From assembly GCA_018175275.1 (NCBI GenBank), contig GCA_018175275.1_4531.1: DNA of 64,000 nucleotides. One strand, written 5' to 3'. This document shows, in pieces, positions 9,783 to 57,755 of this stretch. Position 1 is the first letter of the stretch, and every line of letters starts with the position of its first letter. The notes beneath the pieces are model-generated. The model saw only the letters and a list, made by a program, of their open reading frames with translations, made no database searches and was not told the origin of the DNA. Source of the stretch: a phage. The translations under genes and the position numbers were made by a program.

Positions 9783-9859
9783 TGGTCGGAATTGCAGGAT
9801 TCGAACCTGCGACCCTACGCTCCCAAAGCGTATGCTCTACCAAACTGAGCTAAATTCCG
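9783..9859 (-). tRNA. tRNA-Pro(TGG): tRNA-Pro (TGG)
   Basis: acceptor CGGAATT/AATTCCG, D-stem GCTC/GAGC, anticodon stem TACGC/GCGTA with loop TT-TGG-GA, T-arm GCAGG-TTCGAAT-CCTGC; 5' end overlaps the stop of the HNH gene. Confidence 0.7.
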
Positions 9860-10368
9860 TTATTAATGTGCTTCCATGTGGTGTAAGTAACAATATCCTG
9901 TATTGTCCATCTTGAAACTTCATACTTTTTTGCCAATGCTCGTTGACTAATTTTAGTAGTCTCATACTCCATACGGATTTGAATAACATCTTTTTCTGAT
10001 AACTTGGCTTTATTATTTTCTTCCCCTTTAGGATTAACAAGTAATCCTGTGCTAACAGCGTGTGTCATATTCTCATGCTGTGTCGCCCACTCCACGTTAT
10101 CCTTGTGGTTGTTAAGCTTGTTACCATCTTTGTGATTAACAGATTTCTTGTTTTCAGGATTAGGATGAAAAGCTTTACAAACCAAACGGTGAATCTTAAA
10201 ACAAATACTTTTTCCTTTTCTACCGCCAATTTTTGTTGCGTGGGTATAGTAACCTGTTTTAGATATGGTTTGGGATAGTATCTTATTAGTTCTCTTACTT
10301 CTTAATCTTCCGAGGTCACTTATTTGGAAGTAATTCTCATAACCAGCTACATCACGCCATTCTTCCAT
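9850..10368 (-). CDS. HNH homing endonuclease (NUMOD4-like N-terminus) inside the tRNA cluster
   Basis: 172 aa; N-terminal EEWRDVAGYENYFQISDLGRLRS; HNH core HRLVCKAFHPNPENKKSVNHKDGNKLNNHKDNVEWATQHEN; AAGGAGG RBS. Confidence 0.6.
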   Translation of the reverse strand: MEEWRDVAGYENYFQISDLGRLRSKRTNKILSQTISKTGYYTHATKIGGRKGKSICFKIHRLVCKAFHPNPENKKSVNHKDGNKLNNHKDNVEWATQHENMTHAVSTGLLVNPKGEENNKAKLSEKDVIQIRMEYETTKISQRALAKKYEVSRWTIQDIVTYTTWKHINNGI

Positions 10369-20572: not shown

Positions 20573-21298
20573 ATGATCGAGAATTTTTTTAAAGATATTA
20601 AATTCGATACTGAATTTTTCAAAAATGCAGCAAAGCACGTGATTGATTGGAATGCTAAAGCGCGAGGTGGTGAACAACCTGAATTTACTCAAGAGCTATT
20701 TATGTCCCAAATCGGGTTCGTTCGTGAAGAACTTAAAGAGTATGAAACAGCCGCGAAAGTAAACGATCATGTAGAACTCTTGGACGCAGCAGCAGATATT
20801 TTTGTAGTATCCAGTTATCTGACTTACATGTTCTTTGGTGAAGAACATACGATGAATTTCTTGGACTATACTGTAGGTGATGTTTTTACTCCGACTGTGT
20901 ATACTGACTTTGATGCTTTGGAACAAACATTTACAGAGCCAGTTCAAATGGCACTAATGGCTGCTGGTATTATGCGTATGTCTCGTGACACTCTCATTCG
21001 TTCAAAATATCCAGAAAAGAAAATTATTAAAGAAGTATTGAAAAGTAACGATTCCAAGTATCCAACTAAACAACAGTTGCTGAAAACTTGGAAAACTTCA
21101 GATATCGATTCAGCCATTGCACAAGAATGCACTGCAATTGAAGAACGAAACGCCAATCGTCCAGAAGGAGCATACACGGGTGTTCATGCTGTTTATAATG
21201 AAAAACAGAAAGTGTATGTGTTCTTTGATGATAAAGGTAAGATCATGAAGTGGTCAGGTTTCATTAAACCCAACATTGCAGCTATTATCAAAAAATGA
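20573..21298 (+). CDS. putative MazG-like nucleotide pyrophosphohydrolase
   Basis: 241 aa; REELKEYETAAKVNDHVELLDAAADIFVV resembles the MazG EExxE...D helix pair; weak call. Confidence 0.35.
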   Translation: MIENFFKDIKFDTEFFKNAAKHVIDWNAKARGGEQPEFTQELFMSQIGFVREELKEYETAAKVNDHVELLDAAADIFVVSSYLTYMFFGEEHTMNFLDYTVGDVFTPTVYTDFDALEQTFTEPVQMALMAAGIMRMSRDTLIRSKYPEKKIIKEVLKSNDSKYPTKQQLLKTWKTSDIDSAIAQECTAIEERNANRPEGAYTGVHAVYNEKQKVYVFFDDKGKIMKWSGFIKPNIAAIIKK

Positions 21299-21936
21299 TA
21301 GGTTCAACAAAGGGAGATTTTAGAATCTCCCGTCTTTCTGAAACCAAGATTGACAATCAAACTACTTTTGTATGTTTATGCTTGGTATGCCAAAAAGAAA
21401 GTTTAAGAACATTGTCCAGTCTGAAAAGATCAAAGAGTCCGAAATGCATGTATTGTAGTAAGGGCGATGGCCTATCTAATAAGGAACGATATACTTACGA
21501 AAGTTATCGTAATATGCTACAAAGGTGTTATAATGAAAATTGTGAGCACTATGATAGATACGGTGGACGAGGAATTACTGTTTGTGATGATTGGAAGAAA
21601 TCATTTAACACTTTCTTGAAAGACATGGGTAAGCGACCTAAAAACCATAGTTTAGATCGTGTAAATGTTGATCTTGGTTACAGTAAAGAGAATTGCAGAT
21701 GGACAACACAAAGTGAACAGATTCGAAACAGAGGTAAAACAAAAAGCAAGTATTCAAATTTTAGGGGAGTCTCCTATGACAAAGCTAAAAATAAATGGCT
21801 GGCTTTTATTTGTTTCGATAAGAAAACAAAATATTTAGGAAGATATACTACAGAGTTGGAAGCGGCTGAAGCTTACAATCTCGAAGCATTAGAGTTAGGT
21901 ATGTCTAACTATTTTTTAAATACCCGTTTTAAATAG
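21295..21936 (+). CDS. HNH homing endonuclease with AP2-type DNA-binding domain
   Basis: 213 aa; DRVNVDLGYSKENCRWTTQSEQIRN (HNH-like) plus FRGVSYDKAKNKWLAFI...GRYTTELEAAEAYN (AP2-like). Confidence 0.55.
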   Translation: MIGSTKGDFRISRLSETKIDNQTTFVCLCLVCQKESLRTLSSLKRSKSPKCMYCSKGDGLSNKERYTYESYRNMLQRCYNENCEHYDRYGGRGITVCDDWKKSFNTFLKDMGKRPKNHSLDRVNVDLGYSKENCRWTTQSEQIRNRGKTKSKYSNFRGVSYDKAKNKWLAFICFDKKTKYLGRYTTELEAAEAYNLEALELGMSNYFLNTRFK

Positions 21937-29076: not shown

Positions 29077-31320
29077 TTGATTCGTTTTGTAACTAAATCT
29101 AATGGTAAGACAGAGGAGTTTAACCCAGAAAAACTTCGCAAGTGGTCTGAATTTGCAGCAGGTAAACTAAACTGGTCTGAAATTGAATTAGAAGCTGTGA
29201 AGCGGTGTTATGACGGTGTGTCTACACGTGATCTGCATAAAGCAATGATTGCAGCGTGTATTGACAAGAAAACACAAGCTTACAGTGATATGGCAGGAAG
29301 ACTTCTTCTGGGTATGATTTACAAACAGGCTCATGGGGGATACCACAGTATCCCTTCACTGAATACCTTTTATCATGATATGGTAGAACGTGGTCATTGG
29401 GCTAAAATGGATTATACTGATGAAGAGATCAAAGAAATCGGTAAGATTGTAAAGCATAATAAAAATCTAACTTATGGTTATTCTGTTTTACGTCAAATGG
29501 TGGATAAATATCTTATTCGAGATGCAGTAAACGATGTGGTGCATGAGTCTCCACAGTTCCTTTTCATTGGTATCGCAATGAAGGTTATGGAGATCCAACC
29601 AAAAGAACGCCGTATAGAAGATATTAAAAAACTTTATACTTATGTCAGCGATCTTAAGATTAATCTGCCATCGCCATATCTGACAACTCTACGAACTCCA
29701 ATCAAAGGAAGTGCGTCTTGTTGTTTATTCCGTGCAGACGATACGGCAGAGTCTTTAGCCATTGCTAATTACTTAGCTCATGAGTATACGTTGAATAACG
29801 CAGGTATTGGTGTTAATCTTCAAACTCGTGCCACAGGTCAAGGTGTTAAGAATAATCGTATTATTCACGGTGGTCTTCTTCCGTATCTGAAATGGATGGA
29901 AGATAGTGTTGGAGCTTCAAAGCAAGCAAGCCGTGGAGGTAGTGCTACAGTTACCTTTACCATACTTGAACCAGACTTCGACGATCTGATTCGACTGAAG
30001 AATCCAACAACACCTATAGATAAACGAGTGGATAAACTAGATTATTCTATTGTTGTTAACCGTTCGTTCTTGCGTCGAGCAGCAAAAAACGAAGACTGGA
30101 TGTTAGTTAGTTGTGATGATGCTCCTGAACTTTATGAAGCTTTATATAAAAGTGAAGAAGAGTTTGATGCAGTTTATGACAAAGTAAGTCGTCGTCGCAT
30201 TAAGAAAAAATTTGTTAAGGCTCGTGATCTTCTGACAGAGATTATTGTTCAACGTGCAGAAACAGGACGTATTTACATGTTCTTTGCTGACAACGTTAAC
30301 AACCATACACCTTTCTTGGATACGGTGTATCAATCAAACCTGTGTCAAGAGATCTTCTTACCAACTAAAGCTTTTCACAGTATGCCGGATCTCTTTACTG
30401 GTGAAAATACAGAAGATCAAGAATTGGCTTTATGTTTCTTATCTTCTATTGTTGCTGGTCGTGTATTACCTGAAGAATATGAGGATGTTGCATACTACAC
30501 TGTATTGACAATTGACAACGTTATTGAAACAATGGATTATCCATTTAAACATAACGAAATAACTGCTAAAGCACGTAGATCTATTGGTGTAGGCATTACA
30601 AACTTAGCACATTACTTGGCAAGTAATTTTGTAAATTATTCAGATGATTATGCTAAAAAATTAATGCATGAACTTGCAGAACGTCATTACTTTTGGTTGG
30701 CAAAAGCCTCTTTGCGTCTGGCTAAGGAAAAAGGTAATGCAGAATGGATCGATAAGACCAAATGGCCTCAAGGTTGGCTACCGATTGACACCTATGCTAA
30801 AGCAGTAGATAGTGTCGGTAACTTTGATCTTAAAATGGACTGGGAAGGTTTACGTGCTGAAATCATTGAACAAGGTGGTATCCGTAATAGTGTCTTGGCT
30901 GCTATTGCACCTAATGAGTCCAGCAGTTTGGTAAGCAATACTACTAACTCTCTGTACCCTGTTCGTGATACTATTATGTATAAACAAAGTCAGAAAGGTA
31001 GTGTATTATTTATTGTTCCAGACTACGAAAAACTGAAAATGTTCTACCAATCCGCCTGGGATACTCCGGCTAAAGACCTTGCAGAAATGTATGGTATCTT
31101 TACCAAGTTTACAGACCAAGGAATTTCTTGTGATTCTTGGCTAGATTATTCTAAATTGGTAGGTGGACGTTTATCAGTGAAAGCCGAGATGCAGTTTATT
31201 CTGAATTTTGCTAGATTGGGTGGCAAGTCGTTGTATTATCTTAACAGTAGAACAAAATCAGCAGATTCTTTAGCACAAGAAGATTCTGAAGACGAAGGGT
31301 GTAGTGCCTGTAAAATGTAG
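29077..31320 (+). CDS. nrdA: ribonucleotide reductase class Ia large subunit NrdA
   Basis: 747 aa; N-terminal ATP-cone-like segment, active-site N-L-C-Q-E motif, C-terminal Cys pair EGCSACKM; TTG start with GGGAGGAG RBS. Confidence 0.7.
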   Translation: MIRFVTKSNGKTEEFNPEKLRKWSEFAAGKLNWSEIELEAVKRCYDGVSTRDLHKAMIAACIDKKTQAYSDMAGRLLLGMIYKQAHGGYHSIPSLNTFYHDMVERGHWAKMDYTDEEIKEIGKIVKHNKNLTYGYSVLRQMVDKYLIRDAVNDVVHESPQFLFIGIAMKVMEIQPKERRIEDIKKLYTYVSDLKINLPSPYLTTLRTPIKGSASCCLFRADDTAESLAIANYLAHEYTLNNAGIGVNLQTRATGQGVKNNRIIHGGLLPYLKWMEDSVGASKQASRGGSATVTFTILEPDFDDLIRLKNPTTPIDKRVDKLDYSIVVNRSFLRRAAKNEDWMLVSCDDAPELYEALYKSEEEFDAVYDKVSRRRIKKKFVKARDLLTEIIVQRAETGRIYMFFADNVNNHTPFLDTVYQSNLCQEIFLPTKAFHSMPDLFTGENTEDQELALCFLSSIVAGRVLPEEYEDVAYYTVLTIDNVIETMDYPFKHNEITAKARRSIGVGITNLAHYLASNFVNYSDDYAKKLMHELAERHYFWLAKASLRLAKEKGNAEWIDKTKWPQGWLPIDTYAKAVDSVGNFDLKMDWEGLRAEIIEQGGIRNSVLAAIAPNESSSLVSNTTNSLYPVRDTIMYKQSQKGSVLFIVPDYEKLKMFYQSAWDTPAKDLAEMYGIFTKFTDQGISCDSWLDYSKLVGGRLSVKAEMQFILNFARLGGKSLYYLNSRTKSADSLAQEDSEDEGCSACKM

Positions 31321-31389: not shown

Positions 31390-31989
31390 TTGTGGATGTT
31401 GAACGTAGATTGTGGGAAGGTGGTGTTATCAATGGAAAAAAGGGTTAATACATTCATAGATCCTTCCTATGCAGCTTGGAAAGGCATGTTTAATCGCGCA
31501 TATCGTATGGAAAACATTAGACCAGGTTATAAAGATGTTACCGTGTGTGATGCTTGGTTCACCTTTTCAAACTTTGATAACTGGTATCAAGAACATAACG
31601 TGGAAGGCTTTGTTTTAGATAAAGATCTTGTTCTTGAAGGAAATACTGTTTACTGTCCTGAATATTGTAGGTTTGTTCCTCCTTACATAAATACACTCTT
31701 AAGTTATGCTAAGAGGTATGAAAGAAAATACTTACTAGGAGCACATGTTAGGAAAGATGGTAAGATTTATGCCAAAGCTTCTGGGAGCAAAGGTAAGCAT
31801 TTAGGTTACTTCGCTACAGAGGAAGAGGCACACTTCGCTTGGCTAAAGGATAAAGCTAAGTCAATCAGGGAAACAGCGGATCGTTACAAAGAGGAAGAAC
31901 ATTTTTATCAAGAGGTGTACAACACTCTTGTAAACAAGGCGGATTTCTATTGGCATCTGGCTGAAACAAAAACAGTGTTTCGAGGCTAA
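31390..31989 (+). CDS. HNH-AP2 homing endonuclease between nrdA and nrdB
   Basis: VTVCDAWFTFSNFDNW and HLGYFATEEEAHFAW are paralogous to the HNH-AP2 protein at 21295-21936; start may be ATG 31432. Confidence 0.5.
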   Translation: MWMLNVDCGKVVLSMEKRVNTFIDPSYAAWKGMFNRAYRMENIRPGYKDVTVCDAWFTFSNFDNWYQEHNVEGFVLDKDLVLEGNTVYCPEYCRFVPPYINTLLSYAKRYERKYLLGAHVRKDGKIYAKASGSKGKHLGYFATEEEAHFAWLKDKAKSIRETADRYKEEEHFYQEVYNTLVNKADFYWHLAETKTVFRG

Positions 31990-31995
31990 ATATAA

Positions 31996-32016
31996 AGGGG
32001 CTTCGGCCCCCTTTTT
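31996..32016 (+). terminator. GGGGC-TTCG-GCCCC hairpin terminator
   Basis: tetraloop hairpin followed by TTTTT. Confidence 0.5.
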
Positions 32017-32033: not shown

Positions 32034-33122
32034 ATGGCAGCAATTAATTTACACAATGAAGTTTACAAAACAGGAAAATATCCAGTATTTTTAGGGGAAC
32101 AATTAGGGATCTTTGATTCTGTTAACGTGACTTATCCAGAAATGCACAAACTCTACAAACTTCAAAAAGCACAAGATTGGGATGAAAACGAAGTTAACTT
32201 GGATCAGACACGTAAAGATTTCGTAGCTTGTTCTAAAAACAACTATGATGTTATGATTAAAAACTTATCGTTCCAATGGGAAAATGATTCTCTTGCAAAA
32301 TCAATCATCACTTTGTTCTCTCCATTCTTGAGTAACAATGAAGCCTGTGCTATGATGATGAAGCAGAGTGAAATGGAAGTTCTCCATGCGTTAACGTATT
32401 CTGAAATAATCCGTCAATGTACTCCAGATCCAATCGAAGTCATCAATCAGATTATGATTAATGATAAAATTTTCAATCGTATGGGTATCATTGCTGATAT
32501 CATGGGTCAGTTGGAAGAAGCTGGTCATAAGTATGCTCTAGGATTGATTGAAGCTAACGATGAACTTCGACTGCTGATTCTTAAAGGGATGGTAGCCCTG
32601 ATTGGGTTAGAAGGTATTCAGTTTATATCTTCCTTCTCTGCTACTTTTGCTATGGCAGAACAACAACTGTTTGTTGGAGCTTGTAAACTGATCCAGAAAA
32701 TTATGCTAGATGAAATCTTGCATGTTAAGATGGATTATGCTGTAATTGATGCATTGATGCATGACCCAATTTGGCGTAAAATTTACGAAGACAATATCGA
32801 AGAGTTGACTTTGATTCTCGACACTGTTGTTGAACAAGAGGAACAGTGGTGTGACTACCTGTTTAGTGAAGGGCGTTTTATTGTAGGTCTTAACGCCGAA
32901 TTGTCTAAACAATGGGTTTATTTCAATGCTGCTCCTATTTATCGTCGATTGAAAATGAAAGCCAAGTTTAAAGCACCTAAACATAGTCCTTTAGCTTGGA
33001 TGGAAAAATGGTTGAATCCTGATTTGATTCAGTCAGCAGCCCAAGAGATTCAGTTAACTAACTACAAATTAAATTCAGCTAACAAAGATCTCTCTGATGA
33101 TGAGGAGCTTGACTTCGAATGA
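32034..33122 (+). CDS. nrdB: ribonucleotide reductase class Ia small subunit NrdB
   Basis: 362 aa, size and position after nrdA; ferritin-like helical protein with Glu/His-rich segments. Confidence 0.6.
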   Translation: MAAINLHNEVYKTGKYPVFLGEQLGIFDSVNVTYPEMHKLYKLQKAQDWDENEVNLDQTRKDFVACSKNNYDVMIKNLSFQWENDSLAKSIITLFSPFLSNNEACAMMMKQSEMEVLHALTYSEIIRQCTPDPIEVINQIMINDKIFNRMGIIADIMGQLEEAGHKYALGLIEANDELRLLILKGMVALIGLEGIQFISSFSATFAMAEQQLFVGACKLIQKIMLDEILHVKMDYAVIDALMHDPIWRKIYEDNIEELTLILDTVVEQEEQWCDYLFSEGRFIVGLNAELSKQWVYFNAAPIYRRLKMKAKFKAPKHSPLAWMEKWLNPDLIQSAAQEIQLTNYKLNSANKDLSDDEELDFE

Positions 33123-33328
33123 TTTTGAAATGTGTTGGTATAATCGACACATTCAAAGACGTTTTTGATAAAGGGGCTTCTTATGAAGCCTCTGAAATGA
33201 AGAATGGTTTTTGTGATGTATTCGGTAAACGCCTGAAGAAAAACGGCGATCCTTGGCTAGGAGTTATGTCTTGTGGTCATATTATTGTAAATGGTGTTGC
33301 CAAGTTTGAAATAATTAAGGAGGAATAA
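33119..33328 (+). CDS. hypothetical small protein
   Basis: 69-aa ORF. Confidence 0.3.
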   Translation: MILKCVGIIDTFKDVFDKGASYEASEMKNGFCDVFGKRLKKNGDPWLGVMSCGHIIVNGVAKFEIIKEE

Positions 33329-33481
33329 TGGCTGAAAAACTTATTTTTTGTCCTGTGTGTGGTGGGACTGGACAAATGGAAGTGGAAATTATGGTAACAT
33401 TTCCTTGCCTGAATTGTCATGGTGAGGGGCGAGTAGTAGTCTTTGAAAAAGAAGGGTTGGAGGTAGAAGATGGAGAGTGAA
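33329..33481 (+). CDS. hypothetical DnaJ-type zinc-finger mini-protein (not in ORF track)
   Basis: 50 aa; MAEKLIFCPVCGGTGQ...CLNCHGEGRVV, two CxxCxGxG repeats; AAGGAGGA RBS. Confidence 0.35.
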
Positions 33482-33623
33482 AAAGAGTATGTCCGCATTC
33501 CACGAGAATTAACAGATCACATTGCAGAAGCAATAGCTTTCGAAGCTAGATGTTGTGGAGGTATTGCTTACGATATTTATGAAGCAATTATTAAAGCTGC
33601 TCAAGAAGAGGAGGAGATGAATA

Positions 33624-33950
33624 ATGGGTATTGATATCGAATGGCGTATGTTACAGGGTGCACCATATGATAAATGGAAAGAAATATTTGGAGACGACCC
33701 ACAAGTTGAAGACCAGTTCGATGGGGACTTTAATTGGTTTCTCTGCGAAGGTTTGGGCTTGGAAAACATTTCCCCGTGGTACGATGCAGATCCTGAAGAT
33801 TGTGTCTTCGGTGTCAAGCTGTGTAGCGGCTGTGGTGCTTGTGCCATAGACCTCACAAGCTTAAATAAAAAAGCGAATGAGATCTATTTTGAACTGCTTA
33901 ATAAGTATAATATTGAAACTGAAACATTAGTATCACAAAACGTCTGGTAA
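33624..33950 (+). CDS. hypothetical protein
   Basis: 108-aa ORF with GAGGAGGAG RBS. Confidence 0.4.
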   Translation: MGIDIEWRMLQGAPYDKWKEIFGDDPQVEDQFDGDFNWFLCEGLGLENISPWYDADPEDCVFGVKLCSGCGACAIDLTSLNKKANEIYFELLNKYNIETETLVSQNVW

Positions 33951-33959
33951 GGAGAACTG

Positions 33960-34952
33960 ATGCGCTATCTGGTAACAGGTGGTCTTGGTTTTATTGGGAG
34001 TGCCGTGGTGCGCTCTCTTTGTCAAGATCCTAATAACGAAGTTTTTGTCGTTGATAAGATGAGCTATGCAGCAGATATTGAGAATGTAGGCGATATCACT
34101 CACGTTAAACTAAGCATGACAGATTTGGCAAACGAAGCCCAAGTAAAAAGTTTAGTAGTAGAGTGCAATCCCGATTTCATCATTCACTTAGCGGCAGAGA
34201 GTCATGTGGATAATTCTATCAAGAATCCACGAGTTTTCATCGACTCCAATATTATTGGTACATACAATTTATTGGAAGCTGCAAGGCTCCTCCCAAAGAA
34301 TAAACTGAAGATGTTCGTACACGTCTCCACAGACGAAGTGTACGGCGATATGGCAGACTCTGGCGTTCCCTTTACCGAAGAGACAGCTTATGCCCCTTCA
34401 AGCCCATACAGTGCGTCTAAGGCAGCATCTGACCATCTTGTGAAAGCTTGGCACCGTACCTACGATTTGCCTGTTGTGATAACCAACTGCTCCAATAACT
34501 TTGGACCCTATCAACATCCAGAAAAGCTGATCCCAAAAATCATCACAAGTATCTTGACGAATAAAGAGATTCCGGTGTATGGTAAAGGCGATCAGGTGCG
34601 AGACTGGCTTTTTGTTGAGGATCATGCGCGAGCTATTCTTCAAGTGGCAACAGGTGGAGAACCAGGTAAAACGTATAATGTGGGAACACGTAATCCCAAA
34701 ACCAATATGGAGATCATCTATATGGTTTGTGACTACATGGATGCTGTACATCCAGAAGCAGGAACCTACCCTTCTTCCAACTTGATAACTTTTGTTGAAG
34801 ATCGTAAAGGGCATGACTTGCGTTATGAAATCAATCCTTCTAAGATAGAGTCTGAACTGGGTTGGAGTGCAAACTCTACATTTGAACAAGATCTCTACTC
34901 AACGATTGAATGGTACTTAAACAACCCTCAATGGTGGAGTGGGAAGATTTAA
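33960..34952 (+). CDS. rmlB: dTDP-glucose 4,6-dehydratase (RmlB/RfbB)
   Basis: 330 aa; N-terminal TGGLGFIGS Rossmann motif, catalytic YSASKAA (YxxxK). Confidence 0.7.
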
Positions 34953-34960
34953 GGAGGGCT

Positions 34961-35839
34961 ATGAAAGGTATTATTTTGGCGGGAGGAAGTGGAACCCGCC
35001 TTCATCCGGTAACACGCAGTGTGAGCAAGCAATTGCTCCCTGTGTATGACAAACCCATGATCTACTACCCTTTATCGGTATTGATGTTGGCTGACATTAA
35101 GGATATCTTAATCATCACCACACCAGGCGATCAGGAAGACTTTGAGTATCTTCTCGGAGATGGGTCTATGTTTGGGATAAAACTCACTTACGCAATCCAA
35201 TCCGAGCCGCGAGGTCTTGCGGACGCTTTCATCATCGGTAAAGATTTTATCGGAGAAGACTCTGTTGCTCTTATTTTAGGTGACAACCTATTCTTCGGAC
35301 AAAGCTTTGGTAAACTACTGATTAACGCCAGTGAGATGGTAGATGTTTGTGGCGGAGCTTGTATCTTCGGGTATTTGGTGAAAGATCCTGAACGATTCGG
35401 TGTGGTTGAATTTGGGAGTAATCGTCAAGCTATTTCTATTGAAGAGAAACCTGAAAATCCTAAATCAGATTATGCTGTCACAGGTTTGTATTTCTATGAT
35501 AACTCTGTTGTTCAACGTGCATTAGAAGTAACCCCTTCCGCGCGTGGAGAACTGGAGATCACAGATATCAATCGCAGCTACCTCGAAGACAGGAAGTTAC
35601 AAGTGGAAGTTCTCGGACGAGGATTTACTTGGCTTGACACAGGAACACACGCCAGTCTGATGGAAGCTGGTCAATTCGTGCAGACTATTGAGAACCGTCA
35701 AGGGTTGAAGATTGCGTGCCTGGAAGAAATTGCTTTCAAAAAAGGGTGGATTTCTTTAGAGACTTTGGTATATCATGGAAACTCACTGAAGAAAACAGAG
35801 TACGGGCAATACCTACTCAAATTAGCGGAGAGAAAATGA
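34961..35839 (+). CDS. rmlA: glucose-1-phosphate thymidylyltransferase (RmlA/RfbA)
   Basis: [18 protein letters not shown] signature; start taken at ATG 34961 after AAGGAGGG (track ORF begins 34910). Confidence 0.7.
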
Positions 35840-36402
35840 AAGTAGAAAAAACAAAAATTGAAGGTGCGGTAATTATCAAACCAGACGTTTATAAAGATGA
35901 TCGTGGTTTCTTTTTAGAAACATATAATGAACAAAAATACGAAGATATCATCGGTAGACAAACTTTCGTTCAAGATAACATGTCTAAATCAAACTTCGGT
36001 GTTTTGCGAGGAATGCACTTTCAAACAAATAATCCGCAAGGTAAGCTTGTTCGTTGTGTAAGTGGGGAAGTATTGGATTTCGCTGTAGACCTACGTAAAG
36101 ATAGTCCTACTTACGGTGCTTGGGACGGTGTTGTTCTTCGTGCACGACACCATACACAGTTCTGGCTTCCACCTGGTTTGGCGCATGGTTTTATAGTGTT
36201 GAGTATGGATGCTATCTTCGAATACAAATGCACAACTCCATACGACCCTTCCAGCGAACAAAGTTTACGTTGGGATGATCCTGATATAGGGATTGATTGG
36301 GGCTTCGATATGATTTTTGACGAAGATTTTAAACCTATCTTATCAACAAAAGATGCAATGGCTAAGTCTTTTCAACAGCTACGTAGCGAGGGTGTATGCT
36401 AA
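35836..36402 (+). CDS. rmlC: dTDP-4-dehydrorhamnose 3,5-epimerase (RmlC/RfbC)
   Basis: 188 aa from ATG 35836 overlapping the rmlA stop (ATGA); cupin-type epimerase motifs; gene order B-A-C-D. Confidence 0.6.
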
Positions 36403-37238
36403 CATATCTGGTATTGGGTGGTAATGGACAACTGGGACAAGCTTTACGTAAAGTGGCTCCTTCAAATGTGTCTTTAATTTATCCTAAAGAACGTGTAGAT
36501 ATTACAAATTTTGAAGCTGTGCGAAACGCTATTGTTGAAGATTATGTAGATGGTGTTATTAATTGCGCTGCTTATACGGCTGTAGATAAAGCAGAACAGG
36601 ATTTTGCTACTGCTTTGGCTGTTAATGCCTATGGCCCTGCAAATATTGCGGCAGTGTGCAGCAAACTTAAAATTGATTTTGTGCATATTTCTACAGACTA
36701 TATTTTTAATTATTCTCATCCTATTTTTGAAGACACTACACCTAACCCGATAAACAATTATGGGTATACGAAAGAACTCGGTGAAAAAATGGTGCGAGGA
36801 GTTAACCCAAACGCATATATTATTCGAACAGCGTCTGTATATAGTGAATTTGGAAATAACTTTCTAAAAACCATGTTGTCTCGCTATAATGATGGACAAC
36901 GTGATTTTATTATTGTTGCTGATCAGTTCTCTTGTCCAACATATGCCCCAGATTTAGCAGAAGCTATTTTTGAAGTATTAAAAACAGGTTGGTCAAGATC
37001 TGTAAAGACTTACCATTTTGCAGGAAGCCATCTTATTTCTTGGGCGGAGTTTGCGGAAAAGATCTTGACACAGATGCCAGAACCTGTTAAGATATCGGCG
37101 GTATCAGCTTCAACCTATAATGCTCCAGCAGCACGTCCGGTGAAGTCACAATTAGTAACCAGTCACTATCTTACAAAATCAGATTTAAATAAAGGTATTG
37201 AACGGTCTTTAGCAGTATTACTTAATAAGGAGAGGTAA
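36396..37238 (+). CDS. rmlD: dTDP-4-dehydrorhamnose reductase (RmlD/RfbD)
   Basis: 280 aa; N-terminal LVLGGNGQLGQAL Rossmann motif; last gene of rml set. Confidence 0.6.
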   Translation: MLTYLVLGGNGQLGQALRKVAPSNVSLIYPKERVDITNFEAVRNAIVEDYVDGVINCAAYTAVDKAEQDFATALAVNAYGPANIAAVCSKLKIDFVHISTDYIFNYSHPIFEDTTPNPINNYGYTKELGEKMVRGVNPNAYIIRTASVYSEFGNNFLKTMLSRYNDGQRDFIIVADQFSCPTYAPDLAEAIFEVLKTGWSRSVKTYHFAGSHLISWAEFAEKILTQMPEPVKISAVSASTYNAPAARPVKSQLVTSHYLTKSDLNKGIERSLAVLLNKER

Positions 37239-37498
37239 TGGAATTTGTAATTTTTGGTAAACCTAACTGTCAATTTTGCGAAATGTCAAAACAACTATTA
37301 ACCATGCGCAATAAACAGTTTGAATATTTAAGTCTTGACCAAGACTACGATTTAGAATCAATGACTAAAACAGTTGTTGATCTTACCGGAGTTCCTCCAC
37401 GCACATTTCCACAAATTCTGTCTGAAGTGAACGGGGAGGTAACATACGTAGGCGGTTTTACCGAACTGCGTGATCTCATGGCTCAAATTGCGGAGTAA
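37238..37498 (+). CDS. glutaredoxin-like protein (NrdC/NrdH-type)
   Basis: 86 aa; CxxC active site in GKPNCQFCEM; thioredoxin-fold size. Confidence 0.55.
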   Translation: MEFVIFGKPNCQFCEMSKQLLTMRNKQFEYLSLDQDYDLESMTKTVVDLTGVPPRTFPQILSEVNGEVTYVGGFTELRDLMAQIAE

Positions 37499-37660
37499 CA
37501 ATTATGAAAAGTAAACAGAAACGTAAGATCTTTTCTCGTGCTTTGGCAAATGAGCTGAAGTCCAACATAAAGAAAACGAAACCAAAACGTGAAACTTCTC
37601 CAGAACACCTGTTGTTTAACGAGTTGGATCACGGAGTAGGAGATGACGAATAGGAAGTAA

Positions 37661-38161
37661 ATGGCTAAAGTAGTAGATGAGTTTGATATGCTACGAGTCG
37701 ATGAAGGACTGAAGCTTACTGTTTATCAAGACCATCTTGGTTATTGGACAGTCGGCATAGGACACCTTCTGACTAAAATAAAAGATAAAGCAAAGGCTAT
37801 TCAAATCTTAGATAATCTCCTTGGTCGTAAGACCAATGGAGTTATCACAGAAAAAGAAGCCCGTCAAATCTTTGCTGACGATGTTGCAAAAGTGAAGAGA
37901 GACATAAAAAACAGTGCTATCTTATCACCAATCTATGATAAGGTGAGTGATACTCGTAAATTGGGAATAATCAACATGGTTTTCCAGTTGGGGTTAAAAG
38001 GTGCTGAAGGGTTTAAAAATAGCTTGACTTTAATCAGCAATGCATATTATACTCAAGCAGGTAAAAACATGCGTAAAAGCCGATGGTATAGCCAGACGCC
38101 AAACCGTGCTGAACGAGTAATTAAAGTTCTGACTTCTGGAACTTTAGATGCTTACAACTAA
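37661..38161 (+). CDS. endolysin, T4-type lysozyme (GH24)
   Basis: 166 aa, near full-length similarity by eye to T4 lysozyme: LRVDEGLKLTVYQDHLGYWTVGIGHLLTK, KTNGVITEKEA, INMVFQLG, SRWYSQTPNRAERVI. Confidence 0.8.
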   Translation: MAKVVDEFDMLRVDEGLKLTVYQDHLGYWTVGIGHLLTKIKDKAKAIQILDNLLGRKTNGVITEKEARQIFADDVAKVKRDIKNSAILSPIYDKVSDTRKLGIINMVFQLGLKGAEGFKNSLTLISNAYYTQAGKNMRKSRWYSQTPNRAERVIKVLTSGTLDAYN

Positions 38162-38163
38162 TA

Positions 38164-38180
38164 AAGGGGCTTCGGCCCCT
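38164..38180 (+). terminator. GGGGC-TTCG-GCCCC hairpin (weak T-run)
   Basis: second copy of the tetraloop hairpin, directly after the lysozyme stop. Confidence 0.35.
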
Positions 38181-38197
38181 TCTAAAAGGAGTGCTAC

Positions 38198-38957
38198 TAT
38201 GGGAAATAAAACCGCAGCTAAAACACAACGGCAGAAACTGGCTAATTCAGCAAAGATTGAAAGCCGTTATGCAGCAAAAGCGGTAGGTAATGACGATTAC
38301 CGTTTAGATGAATTTATGCCTGAAGGGGACCAAAATAAGATTGTTCAAAGCATGATTTGGAATGATCTGACTGTTGTAAATGCTCCGGCAGGGACTGGTA
38401 AAACCTCTGTTGCTTTATGGAAAGCTTTGCAGATGCTTCGTTCAGGAGACTTCCGTAAACTACTTTTTATCAAGAACCCTACTGAAGTCGGAGATGACCA
38501 GATTGGTTTCTTGTCTGGGGATAAAACAGATAAACTAGCAGCACACTACGAATCTACAAAACGTATTTTCCAGCAATTCATGACAGCCAATAAATTGGAA
38601 AATGATATTGGATCAGGTAAGATCGAATTGAATATTCCTAACTATTTGTTGGGAGCTACCCTGGATAATACAATTGTCATTATTGACGAAGCACAACTTA
38701 TGTCAACAGAAACACTTAAACTTCTTATTGAACGTGCAGGTATTAATACGCATGTTATTGTATTAGGCGATGTTCGCCAGACATATGCAATTAAAAAACG
38801 TAGCAATGGTCTGCATCAAATTTTGGAACTTTTATATCCAGAAAATGAAGAAGGTGTTCGTGAGCCAATTGTAGATTTTATTGGATATGTTGAACTGACA
38901 ACGGACGATAATAAACGTGGACGTTTGTCTAAACTGATTACTGAAGTGTTTATTTAA
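38198..38957 (+). CDS. phoH: PhoH-like ATPase
   Basis: Walker A NAPAGTGKTSVAL, Walker B-like IVIIDEAQ; ATG 38198 with AAAAGGAG RBS (track ORF starts 38148). Confidence 0.65.
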
Positions 38958-38989: not shown

Positions 38990-39493
38990 TTGATGGGTGT
39001 AGCAACAATAGCTATCGGAAGAAGTGGTATAGATGAGTGCTATCAAACGGGACTCGTAAAACCTAACGAATTTCGTCAAATTTGTGTAAACCATATTGAA
39101 AAAGAGATTGCTCTTACTTTAGAGAATATGACCCTCCGAGATAAACTGGAAATGTTTAAATGTTGGTGTCTAGGAGAAGATTGGCTTTTAAACCATTTTC
39201 AAGAACTTTCTGATAGTAAAGAAAGCTTGTTTGATTGTATAATAGGAATAGCTGGCTCCGATCCTAGCCTTCTGCACATAACAGAAGAAGAGGCGAAGTT
39301 ACTGTTCTTAAGTAATTTGTTTAATAAGAAAGCACTGCTTGTTCGTGATTGCAGTGATCTTCTTAATAACCCGCTCGCAACGTCTGATCAAATTTTTGTT
39401 GACAAAGAGACACTACGTGCGATAGAATACATCTGCAAATATGTGAATGGCGGGAAAGCGGTTCTTAAAACATTAACAGAGGAGGAAGAATAG
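38990..39493 (+). CDS. hypothetical protein
   Basis: 167-aa ORF with AAGGAGGA RBS. Confidence 0.4.
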   Translation: MMGVATIAIGRSGIDECYQTGLVKPNEFRQICVNHIEKEIALTLENMTLRDKLEMFKCWCLGEDWLLNHFQELSDSKESLFDCIIGIAGSDPSLLHITEEEAKLLFLSNLFNKKALLVRDCSDLLNNPLATSDQIFVDKETLRAIEYICKYVNGGKAVLKTLTEEEE

Positions 39494-57077: not shown

Positions 57078-57755
57078 CTATTTAATGTTCAGTCTGGCAC
57101 ACAAACGAGAAACAGTTTTAGCATCCCATTTACCACCACGTGCTGTTGCTATTTTCTTACTATTGAATTTTTCAGCAATAGTTTTGTAAGGTGTATTTAA
57201 ATCTCTAAGGATCTCCAAGCGTTCACGGAATGTCTCTGCAAAAGCGTCTGCTTTAACAGAGTTGTATTCCATTTTTCCTTTTCTACGTGCAGCGGCAGTT
57301 TTAGGATTAGCACTGCCTAATAAAACACCTTTGCTTTTTGCTACAGCAAGCCCCTTTTTAATACGATCAGCAATACCTCTAACTTCTTGTTCAGCCAGAA
57401 CAGACAGAAGCTGTATAACCATTTTATCTGCGTCTGGCATGATGGCTATCTTAACATCAATCATTTCTAGAAGAGTTGCTACGGAGGCGTTGTTACGACC
57501 CAAGCGGTCAACTTTAGCTACCAATAAAGTTGCTCCGGTAGCTTTACACATTTCAACCGCTTTAACCAGTTCCTTACGTTGCTTCCAATCGCCCTTACCC
57601 GAATAGTATTCAGAAAATTGACCAATAACTTCCGCATCAGGCACAGAGTCTAAGAAGTAACGGATATCATTCTCTTGGCTCTCCATACCATATTGTGCCT
57701 CACCTTTTTTCTGTTTAGAAAGACGACTGTAAACAACAAACTTTTTCATAACCAC
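57078..57755 (-). CDS. serine recombinase (resolvase/invertase family)
   Basis: 225 aa; N-terminal VVYSRLSKQ (catalytic Ser context), VAKVDRLGRN motif, C-terminal HTH-like segment. Confidence 0.55.
   Translation of the reverse strand: MVMKKFVVYSRLSKQKKGEAQYGMESQENDIRYFLDSVPDAEVIGQFSEYYSGKGDWKQRKELVKAVEMCKATGATLLVAKVDRLGRNNASVATLLEMIDVKIAIMPDADKMVIQLLSVLAEQEVRGIADRIKKGLAVAKSKGVLLGSANPKTAAARRKGKMEYNSVKADAFAETFRERLEILRDLNTPYKTIAEKFNSKKIATARGGKWDAKTVSRLCARLNIK

Follow-up and report, generated by a model that had tools for sequence, protein, structure and literature searches.

The DNA analysed here is a stretch of 64,000 nucleotides (hereafter the window; GenBank assembly GCA_018175275.1, contig GCA_018175275.1_4531.1) from a phAPEC8-like Escherichia myovirus of the genus Phapecoctavirus, subfamily Stephanstirmvirinae. 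Its positions 33000-38200 share 99.0% nucleotide identity with phage KKP 3954 and 97-99% with dozens of other records. Four contiguous genes in the order rmlB-A-C-D encode all four steps of the dTDP-L-rhamnose pathway and are followed by a gene for a glutaredoxin-like protein, Grx (Table 1). An initial annotation of the sequence had recognised this complete pathway from motifs, and NCBIfam equivalog hidden Markov models, the scores of which we compared with curated cut-offs, bear it out. RmlB scores 431.2 bits with TIGR01181 (cut-off 365.1; residues 2-327 of 330 aligned), RmlA 468.6 bits with TIGR01207 (cut-off 360.65), RmlC 225.4 bits with TIGR01221 (cut-off 155.75), and RmlD 238 bits with TIGR01214 (cut-off 224.05), the smallest margin among the four. 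RmlA has the length of the short form of this enzyme, and its best solved relative is 4ho0 (423 bits, full-length alignment). Expected motifs are found in each protein: GGLGFIG at residue 7 (NAD-binding GxxGxxG), TDEVYG at 124 (T-D-E triplet of the active site) and YSASK at 150 (catalytic YxxxK) in RmlB; GGSGTRL, GDN, EKP and WLDTGT in RmlA; RGMHFQ at residue 58 and KLVR at 70, which hold the catalytic His and Lys, in RmlC; and GGNGQLG (GxxGxxG), TDY and YGYTK (the T...YxxxK triad) in RmlD.

The genes are tightly packed and have Shine-Dalgarno sites. A spacer of 8 nucleotides containing AGGAGG separates the rmlB stop codon from the rmlA ATG, rmlA and rmlC overlap at ATGA, rmlC and rmlD overlap by 7 nucleotides, and rmlD and grx overlap at TAATG. 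Since the junctions overlap or are closely spaced, it is reasonable to regard rmlB-A-C-D as translationally coupled, as had been suggested at the outset. The rmlA start was placed at 34961 (MKGIIL) following the family model and the phAPEC8 annotation, the upstream ATG at 34910 being that of the program-made open reading frame (ORF). Strong terminator-like hairpins on the plus strand lie at 31997, 40191, and 46166, and the hairpin scan detected no convincing terminator within the rml unit; the cassette would be expressed within a long rightward early/middle transcription unit. RmlA would combine glucose-1-phosphate and dTTP into dTDP-glucose, RmlB would convert this into dTDP-4-keto-6-deoxyglucose, RmlC would epimerise the latter at C3 and C5, and RmlD would reduce the product to dTDP-L-rhamnose. 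Judging from family scores and motifs, we consider it very likely that the cassette makes dTDP-L-rhamnose.

The cassette was already known, as it has been annotated since 2012 in the phAPEC8 genome, and published Stephanstirmvirinae (phAPEC8, phi92, the wastewater phages of Olsen et al. 2020 and BASEL phages Bas60-62) carry the same one without material difference. What distinguishes the window from its published relatives is an extra ORF of 199 amino acids (aa) between nrdA and nrdB, and an rmlB which is intact, as opposed to that of KKP 3954, annotated as two coding sequences of 486 and 513 bp (L001:20961-21955). The split annotation reflects either a frameshift or a sequencing error. Olsen et al. 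2020 found the position of the cassette in the DNA-metabolism region "peculiar" and proposed a T4-like glycosylation of hydroxymethylated nucleotides (PMC7552041), so the same observation and proposal in the initial annotation had been anticipated. Our literature searches found no functional study of the cassette.

Table 1. Features of the rml region and of the glycosyltransferase cluster (window coordinates unless stated otherwise)
Feature	Position	Strand	Basis or remark
nrdA, class Ia ribonucleotide reductase large subunit	29077..31320	+	ORF; counterparts annotated NrdA in KKP 3954, phAPEC8, phi92
nrdB, ribonucleotide reductase small subunit	32034..33122	+	84% aa identity to phi92 NrdB
Four small overlapping ORFs, function not assigned	33119..33950	+	33119-33328 (69 aa), 33328-33480 (50 aa), 33470-33634 (54 aa), 33624-33950 (108 aa)
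rmlB, dTDP-glucose 4,6-dehydratase, 330 aa	33960..34952	+	TIGR01181 and motifs
rmlA, glucose-1-phosphate thymidylyltransferase, 292 aa	34961..35839	+	TIGR01207 and motifs
rmlC, dTDP-4-dehydrorhamnose 3,5-epimerase, 188 aa	35836..36402	+	TIGR01221 and motifs
rmlD, dTDP-4-dehydrorhamnose reductase, 280 aa	36396..37238	+	TIGR01214 and motifs
Glutaredoxin-like protein, 86 aa	37238..37498	+	PF00462, CQFC
T4-type lysozyme (right flank)	37661..38161	+	Annotated lysozyme in phAPEC8, ESCO37, phi92
Four adjacent glycosyltransferases, gp071-gp074	phAPEC8 109,618-112,765 (L004:9618-12765)		RefSeq annotation; outside window

Such genes could be mere passenger DNA, resulting from a recent and functionless capture of host O-antigen genes. 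Two observations would fit such a capture: rmlB and rmlA have a guanine-plus-cytosine (GC) content (0.43-0.44) slightly above the phage background (0.39), as is their GC content at third codon positions (0.41-0.42, against 0.29 for the background, 0.30 for rmlC and 0.24 for rmlD), and both genes are missing in part of the genus. Thus, rmlB and rmlA are less codon-adapted to the phage than rmlC and rmlD. However, in the best match of the cassette among 5426 complete E. coli genomes, no more than 45% of the query aligns, at only about 64% nucleotide identity; the genes run B-A-C-D in the phage versus rfbB-D-A-C in the host, and the amino acid identity to the E. coli enzymes is 53% for RmlB, 62% for RmlA, 49% for RmlC, and 33% for RmlD. 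Relative synonymous codon usage of the cassette is closer to that of the phage background (r = 0.86) than to that of host rfb genes (r = 0.68). When the four genes are compared with those of phAPEC8, 64 differences are synonymous and 16 are non-synonymous, with a pooled ratio of the non-synonymous to the synonymous proportion of differences (pN/pS) of 0.07; this ratio is 0.10 for rmlB against phAPEC8 and 0.012-0.025 for rmlC. Motifs are intact and no internal stop was found in the rml genes. In phi92, where the cassette has the same order and the same position, pS is saturated at 0.63-0.81 and pN reaches 0.21-0.30, a comparison made between genera; the cassette is conserved in these two genera plus Klebsiella relatives. 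Given the low identity to host genes, the different gene order, the phage-like codon usage, the low pN/pS and the conserved context, the cassette is a genuine, conserved phage trait. A recent host origin, which the initial annotation had envisaged along with host-like codon usage and no conservation of the phage context, is refuted on every count, and a functionless capture is extremely improbable.

Allelic variation exists within the cassette. Phages phiWec186, phiWec190 and PsgM04F (records LC739535, LC739539, OR584014) carry a divergent rmlC allele (64-66% aa identity). In phiWec190, rmlA is 96.6% identical despite the divergent rmlC, and Grx is divergent too (75.6%). The presence of a divergent rmlC beside a near-identical rmlA indicates probable mosaic recombination within the cassette. 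Separately, records labelled as Campylobacter, Pseudomonas and 'Dompiswa' phages (MG0656xx, OR584014, MW175890) share 81-97% identity in these genes with E. coli Phapecoctavirus or Justusliebigvirus, and Campylobacter-labelled records are also among the matches listed beside Vequintavirus phages; the host labels of those records look doubtful.

The glutaredoxin gene helps to explain how the cassette came to lie where it does. Its product scores 38.1 bits with Pfam PF00462 (cut-off 22.9) and carries CQFC at residue 11, in agreement with its first identification. None of the specific NCBIfam equivalogs (GrxA, Grx3, NrdH) is matched above cut-off (best score 33 bits versus 90), and Grx is a divergent phage glutaredoxin. 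In the Vequintavirus relative DrSchubert, which carries no rml genes, the order is thyX ... nrdA-nrdB-grx, and grx begins 4 bases past nrdB. Grx homologues occur in many other phages, in which the features annotated alongside the matches are Nrd subunits. As its homologue adjoins nrdB in DrSchubert and Nrd subunits in many phages, Grx belongs functionally to the Nrd module, and we reject it as a member of the sugar pathway. From this comparison, the four small ORFs and rmlBACD (about 4.1 kb) are an insertion that split nrdB from grx in the Stephanstirmvirinae ancestor. The cassette had been described as embedded, together with glutaredoxin, in a nucleotide-metabolism block; this is accurate for its position, but the position results from the insertion, and Grx is not part of the sugar pathway. 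Consequently, the location of the cassette is weak evidence for a DNA-related role.

An activated deoxy-sugar in a lytic phage implies a transferase and an acceptor, as the initial annotation correctly reasoned. It had recognised no glycosyltransferase (GT) nearby, which holds for the window but not for the genome: the genome-wide search that it had called for finds, in the phAPEC8 annotation, four adjacent GT genes, gp071-gp074, between primase/helicase and the endolysin region. They lie about 35-38 kb past the window's left edge and about 69 kb from the rml genes, and KKP 3954, the closest relative of the window, has the cluster at 98.4% identity. The two nearest candidates put forward earlier are not supported. 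The first, taken as a single ORF spanning 33119-33950, consists of four overlapping ORFs of 69, 50, 54 and 108 aa; its 69-aa and 108-aa ORFs, as well as the second candidate (38990-39493), have no Pfam or NCBIfam match, and their PHROGs have no assigned function.

The identity of gp071-gp074 as GTs is backed by PHROG and Pfam, by conserved DxD and E-D motifs, and by confident models of the GT-A and GT-B types, the cluster being made up of two GT-A-like proteins and two GT4-like GT-B paralogues. The paralogues, gp073 and gp074, are 41% identical, and structure prediction combined with Foldseek gives their family a GT4-like GT-B fold (predicted local distance difference test score, pLDDT, of 94.6), with sucrose-phosphate synthase, PglA, MshA, BshA, SdgB, GtfC/Gtf3 and TarM as fold neighbours. 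Across 19 homologues, gp072 has an invariant F-D-D-D (DxD) and a Y-G-x-E-D motif; its confident model (pLDDT 88.9) shows a GT-A fold, for which the viral GT A197 of Sulfolobus turreted icosahedral virus (STIV) is the best match among solved structures. A third, smaller GT-family protein, gp071, is recognised by PHROG alone. All four proteins are soluble. Sequence searches of gp071, gp072, gp073 and the family profiles against all PDB chains returned nothing meaningful, and Foldseek of the GT models found no close characterised relative from which the donor or the acceptor might be deduced.

The GT and rml modules are found in the same phages. Using tblastn, we detected GT-B in 65 records at 95% identity or more and in 66 at 60-90%, and RmlC in 65 records at 95% identity or more and in 65 at 60-80%. 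The organisms listed for GT-B and for RmlC are largely the same (Phapecoctavirus, phi92-like phages and Klebsiella relatives such as KP2025), and no Vequintavirus appears among the listed GT-B or RmlC matches. Thus, GT-B and rmlC co-occur almost one-to-one.

The GT genes are also found in unrelated settings. Chromosomal GT-B homologues that seem bacterial are in fact prophage genes, and modules of the gp071/gp072/gp073 type occur in Serratia and Pseudomonas prophages and in metagenomic phage contigs (L006, L008, L013-L015). In a prophage of Serratia sp. M24T3, a gp071-like gene, a gp072-like gene and GT-B (41, 36 and 52% identity) are followed by HNH, terminase and capsid genes; in a Pseudomonas silvicola prophage, a gp072-like gene and GT-B are followed by terminase, portal and capsid genes; and in contig L015, GT-B and a gp072-like gene stand immediately before terminase. 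In contig L013 (184 kb), neighbours are of the replication type, with the GT pair adjoining topoisomerase II and ThyX. The lambdoid-type contig L014 shows the order Q antiterminator, endolysin, gp071-like gene, short-chain dehydrogenase/reductase (SDR) gene, gp072-like gene, GT-B, HNH and terminase. There, the position of the GT genes after the Q antiterminator and endolysin is late-operon territory. The SDR enzyme (L014:8354-9376) has TIGR01181 as its best family (180 bits, below cut-off) and is 29% identical to the phage RmlB, so that the GT module of this contig seems to travel with a nucleotide-sugar enzyme of the 6-deoxyhexose type. In total, at least six phage lineages carry the pair of GT-A and GT-B genes, which lies directly upstream of terminase, portal or capsid genes in four temperate-type phages. 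From its gene contexts, the pair is a mobile, phage-specific module, usually situated just upstream of terminase. That the dTDP-rhamnose pathway feeds gp071-gp074 is, in our judgement, somewhat better than an even bet.

Gene loss within Phapecoctavirus provides information on which steps of the pathway matter. At a coverage of 80% or more, rmlC-D is found in 65 records versus 47 for rmlB-A; about 18 of some 65 records, or about 28% of the genus, have lost rmlB/A, while rmlC/D are never lost. One such phage, ESCO37, was reported to be without rmlA and rmlB (PMC10269720). We find in it (L005:7661-8563) a clean deletion from one Shine-Dalgarno region to another, whose ends fall in the GGAGA microhomology of the two regions (window 33935-33975 and 35810-35850), and as the deletion joins them at GGAGA, rmlC keeps a ribosome-binding site. 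In this phage, rmlC and rmlD are intact, with pN/pS of 0.025-0.05 relative to the window, and the GT-B genes are kept, being found in two places at 98.7% identity. The host side of the pathway is uneven in a complementary way. The enterobacterial common antigen (ECA) pathway gives every E. coli dTDP-4-keto-6-deoxyglucose through RffH and RffG. An rfbA/rffH-type gene was indeed detected in 5426 of 5426 complete E. coli genomes, against 2674 (49%) for rfbC, a lower bound given the sensitivity of blastn. As the host always supplies the first two steps and carries rfbC in about half of the cases, the phage must bring RmlC and RmlD to be independent of the serotype, and RmlA and RmlB would be dispensable boosters of flux. 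The pattern fits a role of the cassette in supplying dTDP-L-rhamnose specifically.

Taking these observations as a whole, we favour a functional, phage-adapted dTDP-L-rhamnose pathway that supplies phage GTs, with a phage protein as the acceptor, and give this reading a probability of roughly 0.45. The pathway would guarantee the donor sugar for the four-gene GT cassette of the phage whatever the host serotype. The acceptor, the weakest step, would be a phage protein, most likely a virion component, and not DNA. A phage protein is preferred because the GT cassette adjoins terminase in temperate phages and because the gp072 family is homologous to a Cheoctovirus GT: with the family profile, gp105 of the Cheoctovirus phage Mozy, a GT of 478 aa, is matched at E = 5e-24, and 327 Mycobacterium phage records were matched by this family. 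Papers citing Freeman 2023 (PMC11256854, PMC12363180, PMC12619734) report that phage GTs glycosylate the capsid and the tail tube of the cluster F1 (Cheoctovirus) phage Che8, and one of them names the Che8 GT gp110 (PMC12363180). Glycosylation of a phage protein is thus the best-supported acceptor hypothesis, although it is unproven. By analogy with Che8, we tentatively suggest a virion protein as the acceptor, with clearly less than even odds. The fuller proposal, that Stephanstirmvirinae coliphages (Phapecoctavirus and phi92-like) attach a rhamnose-containing glycan to proteins of their own virions, using a mobile GT-A plus GT-B cassette fed by their own pathway, must be rated somewhat lower still, as an idea that may well prove wrong.

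Several points weigh against the preferred reading. Shared ancestry by itself could account for the co-occurrence of the two modules, as this is observed within a single subfamily. Here, both modules sit among genes for replication and nucleotide metabolism and not among structural genes. The best TM-scores of the GTs are 0.4-0.65, and donor specificity is not readable from matches at the level of the fold. Mozy gp108, the probable counterpart of Che8 gp110, is not similar to gp071 or gp072, and the Mozy gp105-type homologue may not correspond to the GT shown to be essential in Che8. The C-termini of the major capsid and decoration proteins of the window show no obvious Ser/Thr-rich tail, which is uninformative either way. 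Finally, in the study of Freeman et al., signs of glycosylation in phages other than actinophages were reportedly scarce.

Rhamnose is a typical sugar of bacterial envelopes, and the phage dTDP-rhamnose and GTs might instead alter the lipopolysaccharide (LPS) core or O-antigen, ECA, the NGR glycan or the capsule during infection, which could block superinfection or keep progeny off cell debris. Folds of the GT4-like and GT-A types are commonly met in the synthesis of envelope glycans (TarP, TarM, PglA and the Listeria rhamnosyltransferase RmlT are among the fold neighbours), the GTs fall in the PHROG category 'moron, auxiliary metabolic gene and host takeover', and the phages themselves recognise surface glycans, namely ECA/NGR and the LPS core (PMC8594841, PMC11990801). 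As the primary receptor of phi92-like BASEL phages is now the NGR glycan and not ECA as in the 2021 paper (PMC11990801), arguments built on ECA as the receptor need a caveat. Against such remodelling, export and display of the new glycan would have to be completed during a single lytic cycle, a scan that detected its positive controls found no transmembrane-like segment in the GTs or in the scanned neighbouring small proteins, including the small ORFs of 33119-33950, and the phAPEC8 annotation contains no flippase, polymerase or Gtr-type (GtrA/GtrB/GtrC) partner. In temperate phages, the cassette is in the late region beside terminase and not in the position of a moron expressed by the lysogen. 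Moreover, Vequintavirus relatives, which share the reported dependence on wecB and the LPS core (PMC8594841), have no rml genes (DrSchubert) and no GT-B or RmlC matches among those listed. We therefore consider a role in the host envelope unlikely. In a further scenario, the GTs might rhamnosylate a host cytoplasmic protein or a small molecule, for host takeover or anti-defence, or, with no dedicated acceptor, the pathway might mainly redirect the flux of dTTP and glucose-1-phosphate, for example by draining dTDP-4-keto-6-deoxyglucose, the precursor of ECA and O-antigen. RmlC and RmlD would compete with the ECA branch for this same intermediate, the genes resemble early/middle genes in placement and packing, their unit containing no strong terminator, and the GT4-like neighbours include GTs acting on small molecules (MshA, BshA) and on proteins (SdgB, GtfC). 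A pure metabolic sink, however, leaves unexplained both the strict co-inheritance with four GT genes and the dehydratase-plus-GT cassette beside terminase in contig L014. We know of no defence or takeover system using dTDP-rhamnose, and our literature searches pointed to none. Another acceptor of this kind, or none, is the least likely of the acceptor scenarios that we considered.

The transfer of rhamnose onto a modified base for restriction evasion, on the T4 model, as proposed by Olsen et al. 2020 and by the initial annotation, is disfavoured and only marginally more probable than another acceptor or no dedicated one. Its appeal comes from genomic position: the rml genes are in the nucleotide-metabolism block, the GT cluster is beside primase/helicase, DNA methyltransferase and DNA polymerase genes, and the neighbours of the GT pair in contig L013 point the same way. 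The nrdB-grx position, however, is an insertion scar, and temperate phages with the same GT cassette show no base-modification gene nearby. In addition, gp072 has weak and short similarities to DNA glycosyltransferase families, with a TET-associated glycosyltransferase (TAGT) Pfam match of 19.5 bits (cut-off 27.5, E 1e-3) and a match of E 7.6e-6 to phrog_842 (T-even beta-glucosyl-HMC alpha-glucosyltransferase) over residues 32-70 only. This similarity is confined to the DxD region, the Pfam match is below threshold, and TAGT proteins rank low in the list of viral folds; the 50 best structural matches of GT-B include none described as a T4 DNA glucosyltransferase. Neither the 20 further window ORFs scanned nor the phAPEC8 annotation yielded a dCMP/dUMP hydroxymethylase, TET/JBP or other base-modifying enzyme, while the presence of ThyX (35 bits versus a cut-off of 24.8), of an NT5C-type nucleotidase and of a MazG-like enzyme points to DNA with ordinary thymidine. 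The phage has several DNA methyltransferases instead, and phi92-like phages, in which this cassette also occurs, are described as 'exceptionally susceptible' to restriction-modification systems (PMC8594841).

The surroundings of the cassette are consistent with the description given at the outset, after nrdA/nrdB and before the lysozyme gene, except that the 199-aa ORF between nrdA and nrdB (31390-31989, plus strand) had been left out. This ORF has an AP2-like C-terminal sequence and no Pfam match, and a strong terminator-like hairpin (31997-32010) follows it. It is missing in KKP 3954, 99% identical to the window; phAPEC8 has another small ORF in the same interval, and phi92 an annotated HNH endonuclease, so that the nrdA-nrdB interval looks like a variable slot for homing endonucleases. 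The four small ORFs ahead of rmlB have counterparts of the same size annotated at the same positions in phAPEC8, phi92 and ESCO37. The 50-aa one (plus strand), which belongs to the insertion carrying the rml genes, has two CxxC pairs and is zinc-ribbon-like; the phi92 ORF at the matching position, gp070, is annotated as a 'putative DnaJ chaperone'. At a larger scale, structural genes run leftward, followed by the long rightward early/middle block with the cassette and then by leftward genes again, and the sign of the GC skew flips at about 13 kb and about 50 kb of the window, where the coding strand switches. Three further ORFs are of the mobile-element type: an HNH/NUMOD-like endonuclease judged from its sequence (9850-10368, minus strand), an AP2-domain ORF (21295-21936, plus strand; Pfam 30.3 bits, under cut-off) and a resolvase/invertase (57078-57755, minus strand; Pfam 65.9 bits).

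Compared with bacterial RmlABCD/RfbBDAC systems, such as those of E. coli and Salmonella O-antigen clusters, the phage cassette contains the same four enzyme families, above cut-offs and with motifs kept. It differs in belonging to a strictly lytic phage, in its gene order and in the modest identity (33-62%) of its products to the E. coli enzymes; it also has no adjoining O-antigen flippase, polymerase or transferase and sits between nrdB and grx. The resemblance to T-even DNA glucosylation lies in the lytic myovirus lifestyle, in GT genes placed among early/middle genes and in the supply of a sugar nucleotide near replication genes. However, T-even phages use hydroxymethylcytosine, alpha- and beta-glucosyltransferases and UDP-glucose, whereas here ThyX occurs and no hydroxymethylase/dCTPase-type pathway was detected, a dTDP-6-deoxyhexose would serve as the donor, the GTs have no close kinship with those of T4, and relatives are restriction-sensitive. 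Closer parallels exist with the virion glycosylation of mycobacteriophages Che8, Corndog and Myrna (Freeman et al. 2023, as cited in PMC11256854 and PMC12363180): soluble phage GTs encoded outside the structural operon, a gp072 family homologous to a large Cheoctovirus GT, and a cassette that adjoins morphogenesis genes in related temperate phages. Unlike these phages, the phage studied here has a Gram-negative host, its own donor-sugar pathway and a GT4-like GT-B partner, and its virion glycosylation is putative. Giant viruses of the Mimivirus type also combine a deoxy-sugar nucleotide pathway with their own GTs to decorate the particle independently of the host, but they have eukaryotic hosts, UDP-based rhamnose synthesis and much larger gene sets.

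The gene cassette itself is ordinary and published, and the interest lies in its purpose. Our analysis adds the attribution of Grx to the Nrd module, the link of four GT genes with rmlC, the mobile GT cassette, and the pattern of rmlB/A loss. This last pattern, with rmlC/D kept, is a tidy example of a phage retaining the steps that its hosts cannot reliably supply. A lytic phage carries about 3.3 kb of sugar-nucleotide genes and about 3.1 kb of GT genes under strong purifying selection. Were DNA or the host envelope to be the acceptor, this would represent a new hypermodification or a new mechanism of host takeover by lytic phages. With a virion protein as the acceptor, the system would be the first of its kind in phages of Gram-negative bacteria, extending virion glycosylation beyond actinophages, and it would matter for the immunogenicity and pharmacokinetics of phages often included in E. 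coli cocktails for therapy. Given the cassettes found upstream of terminase in many temperate phages, virion glycosylation would then be far more widespread than thought.

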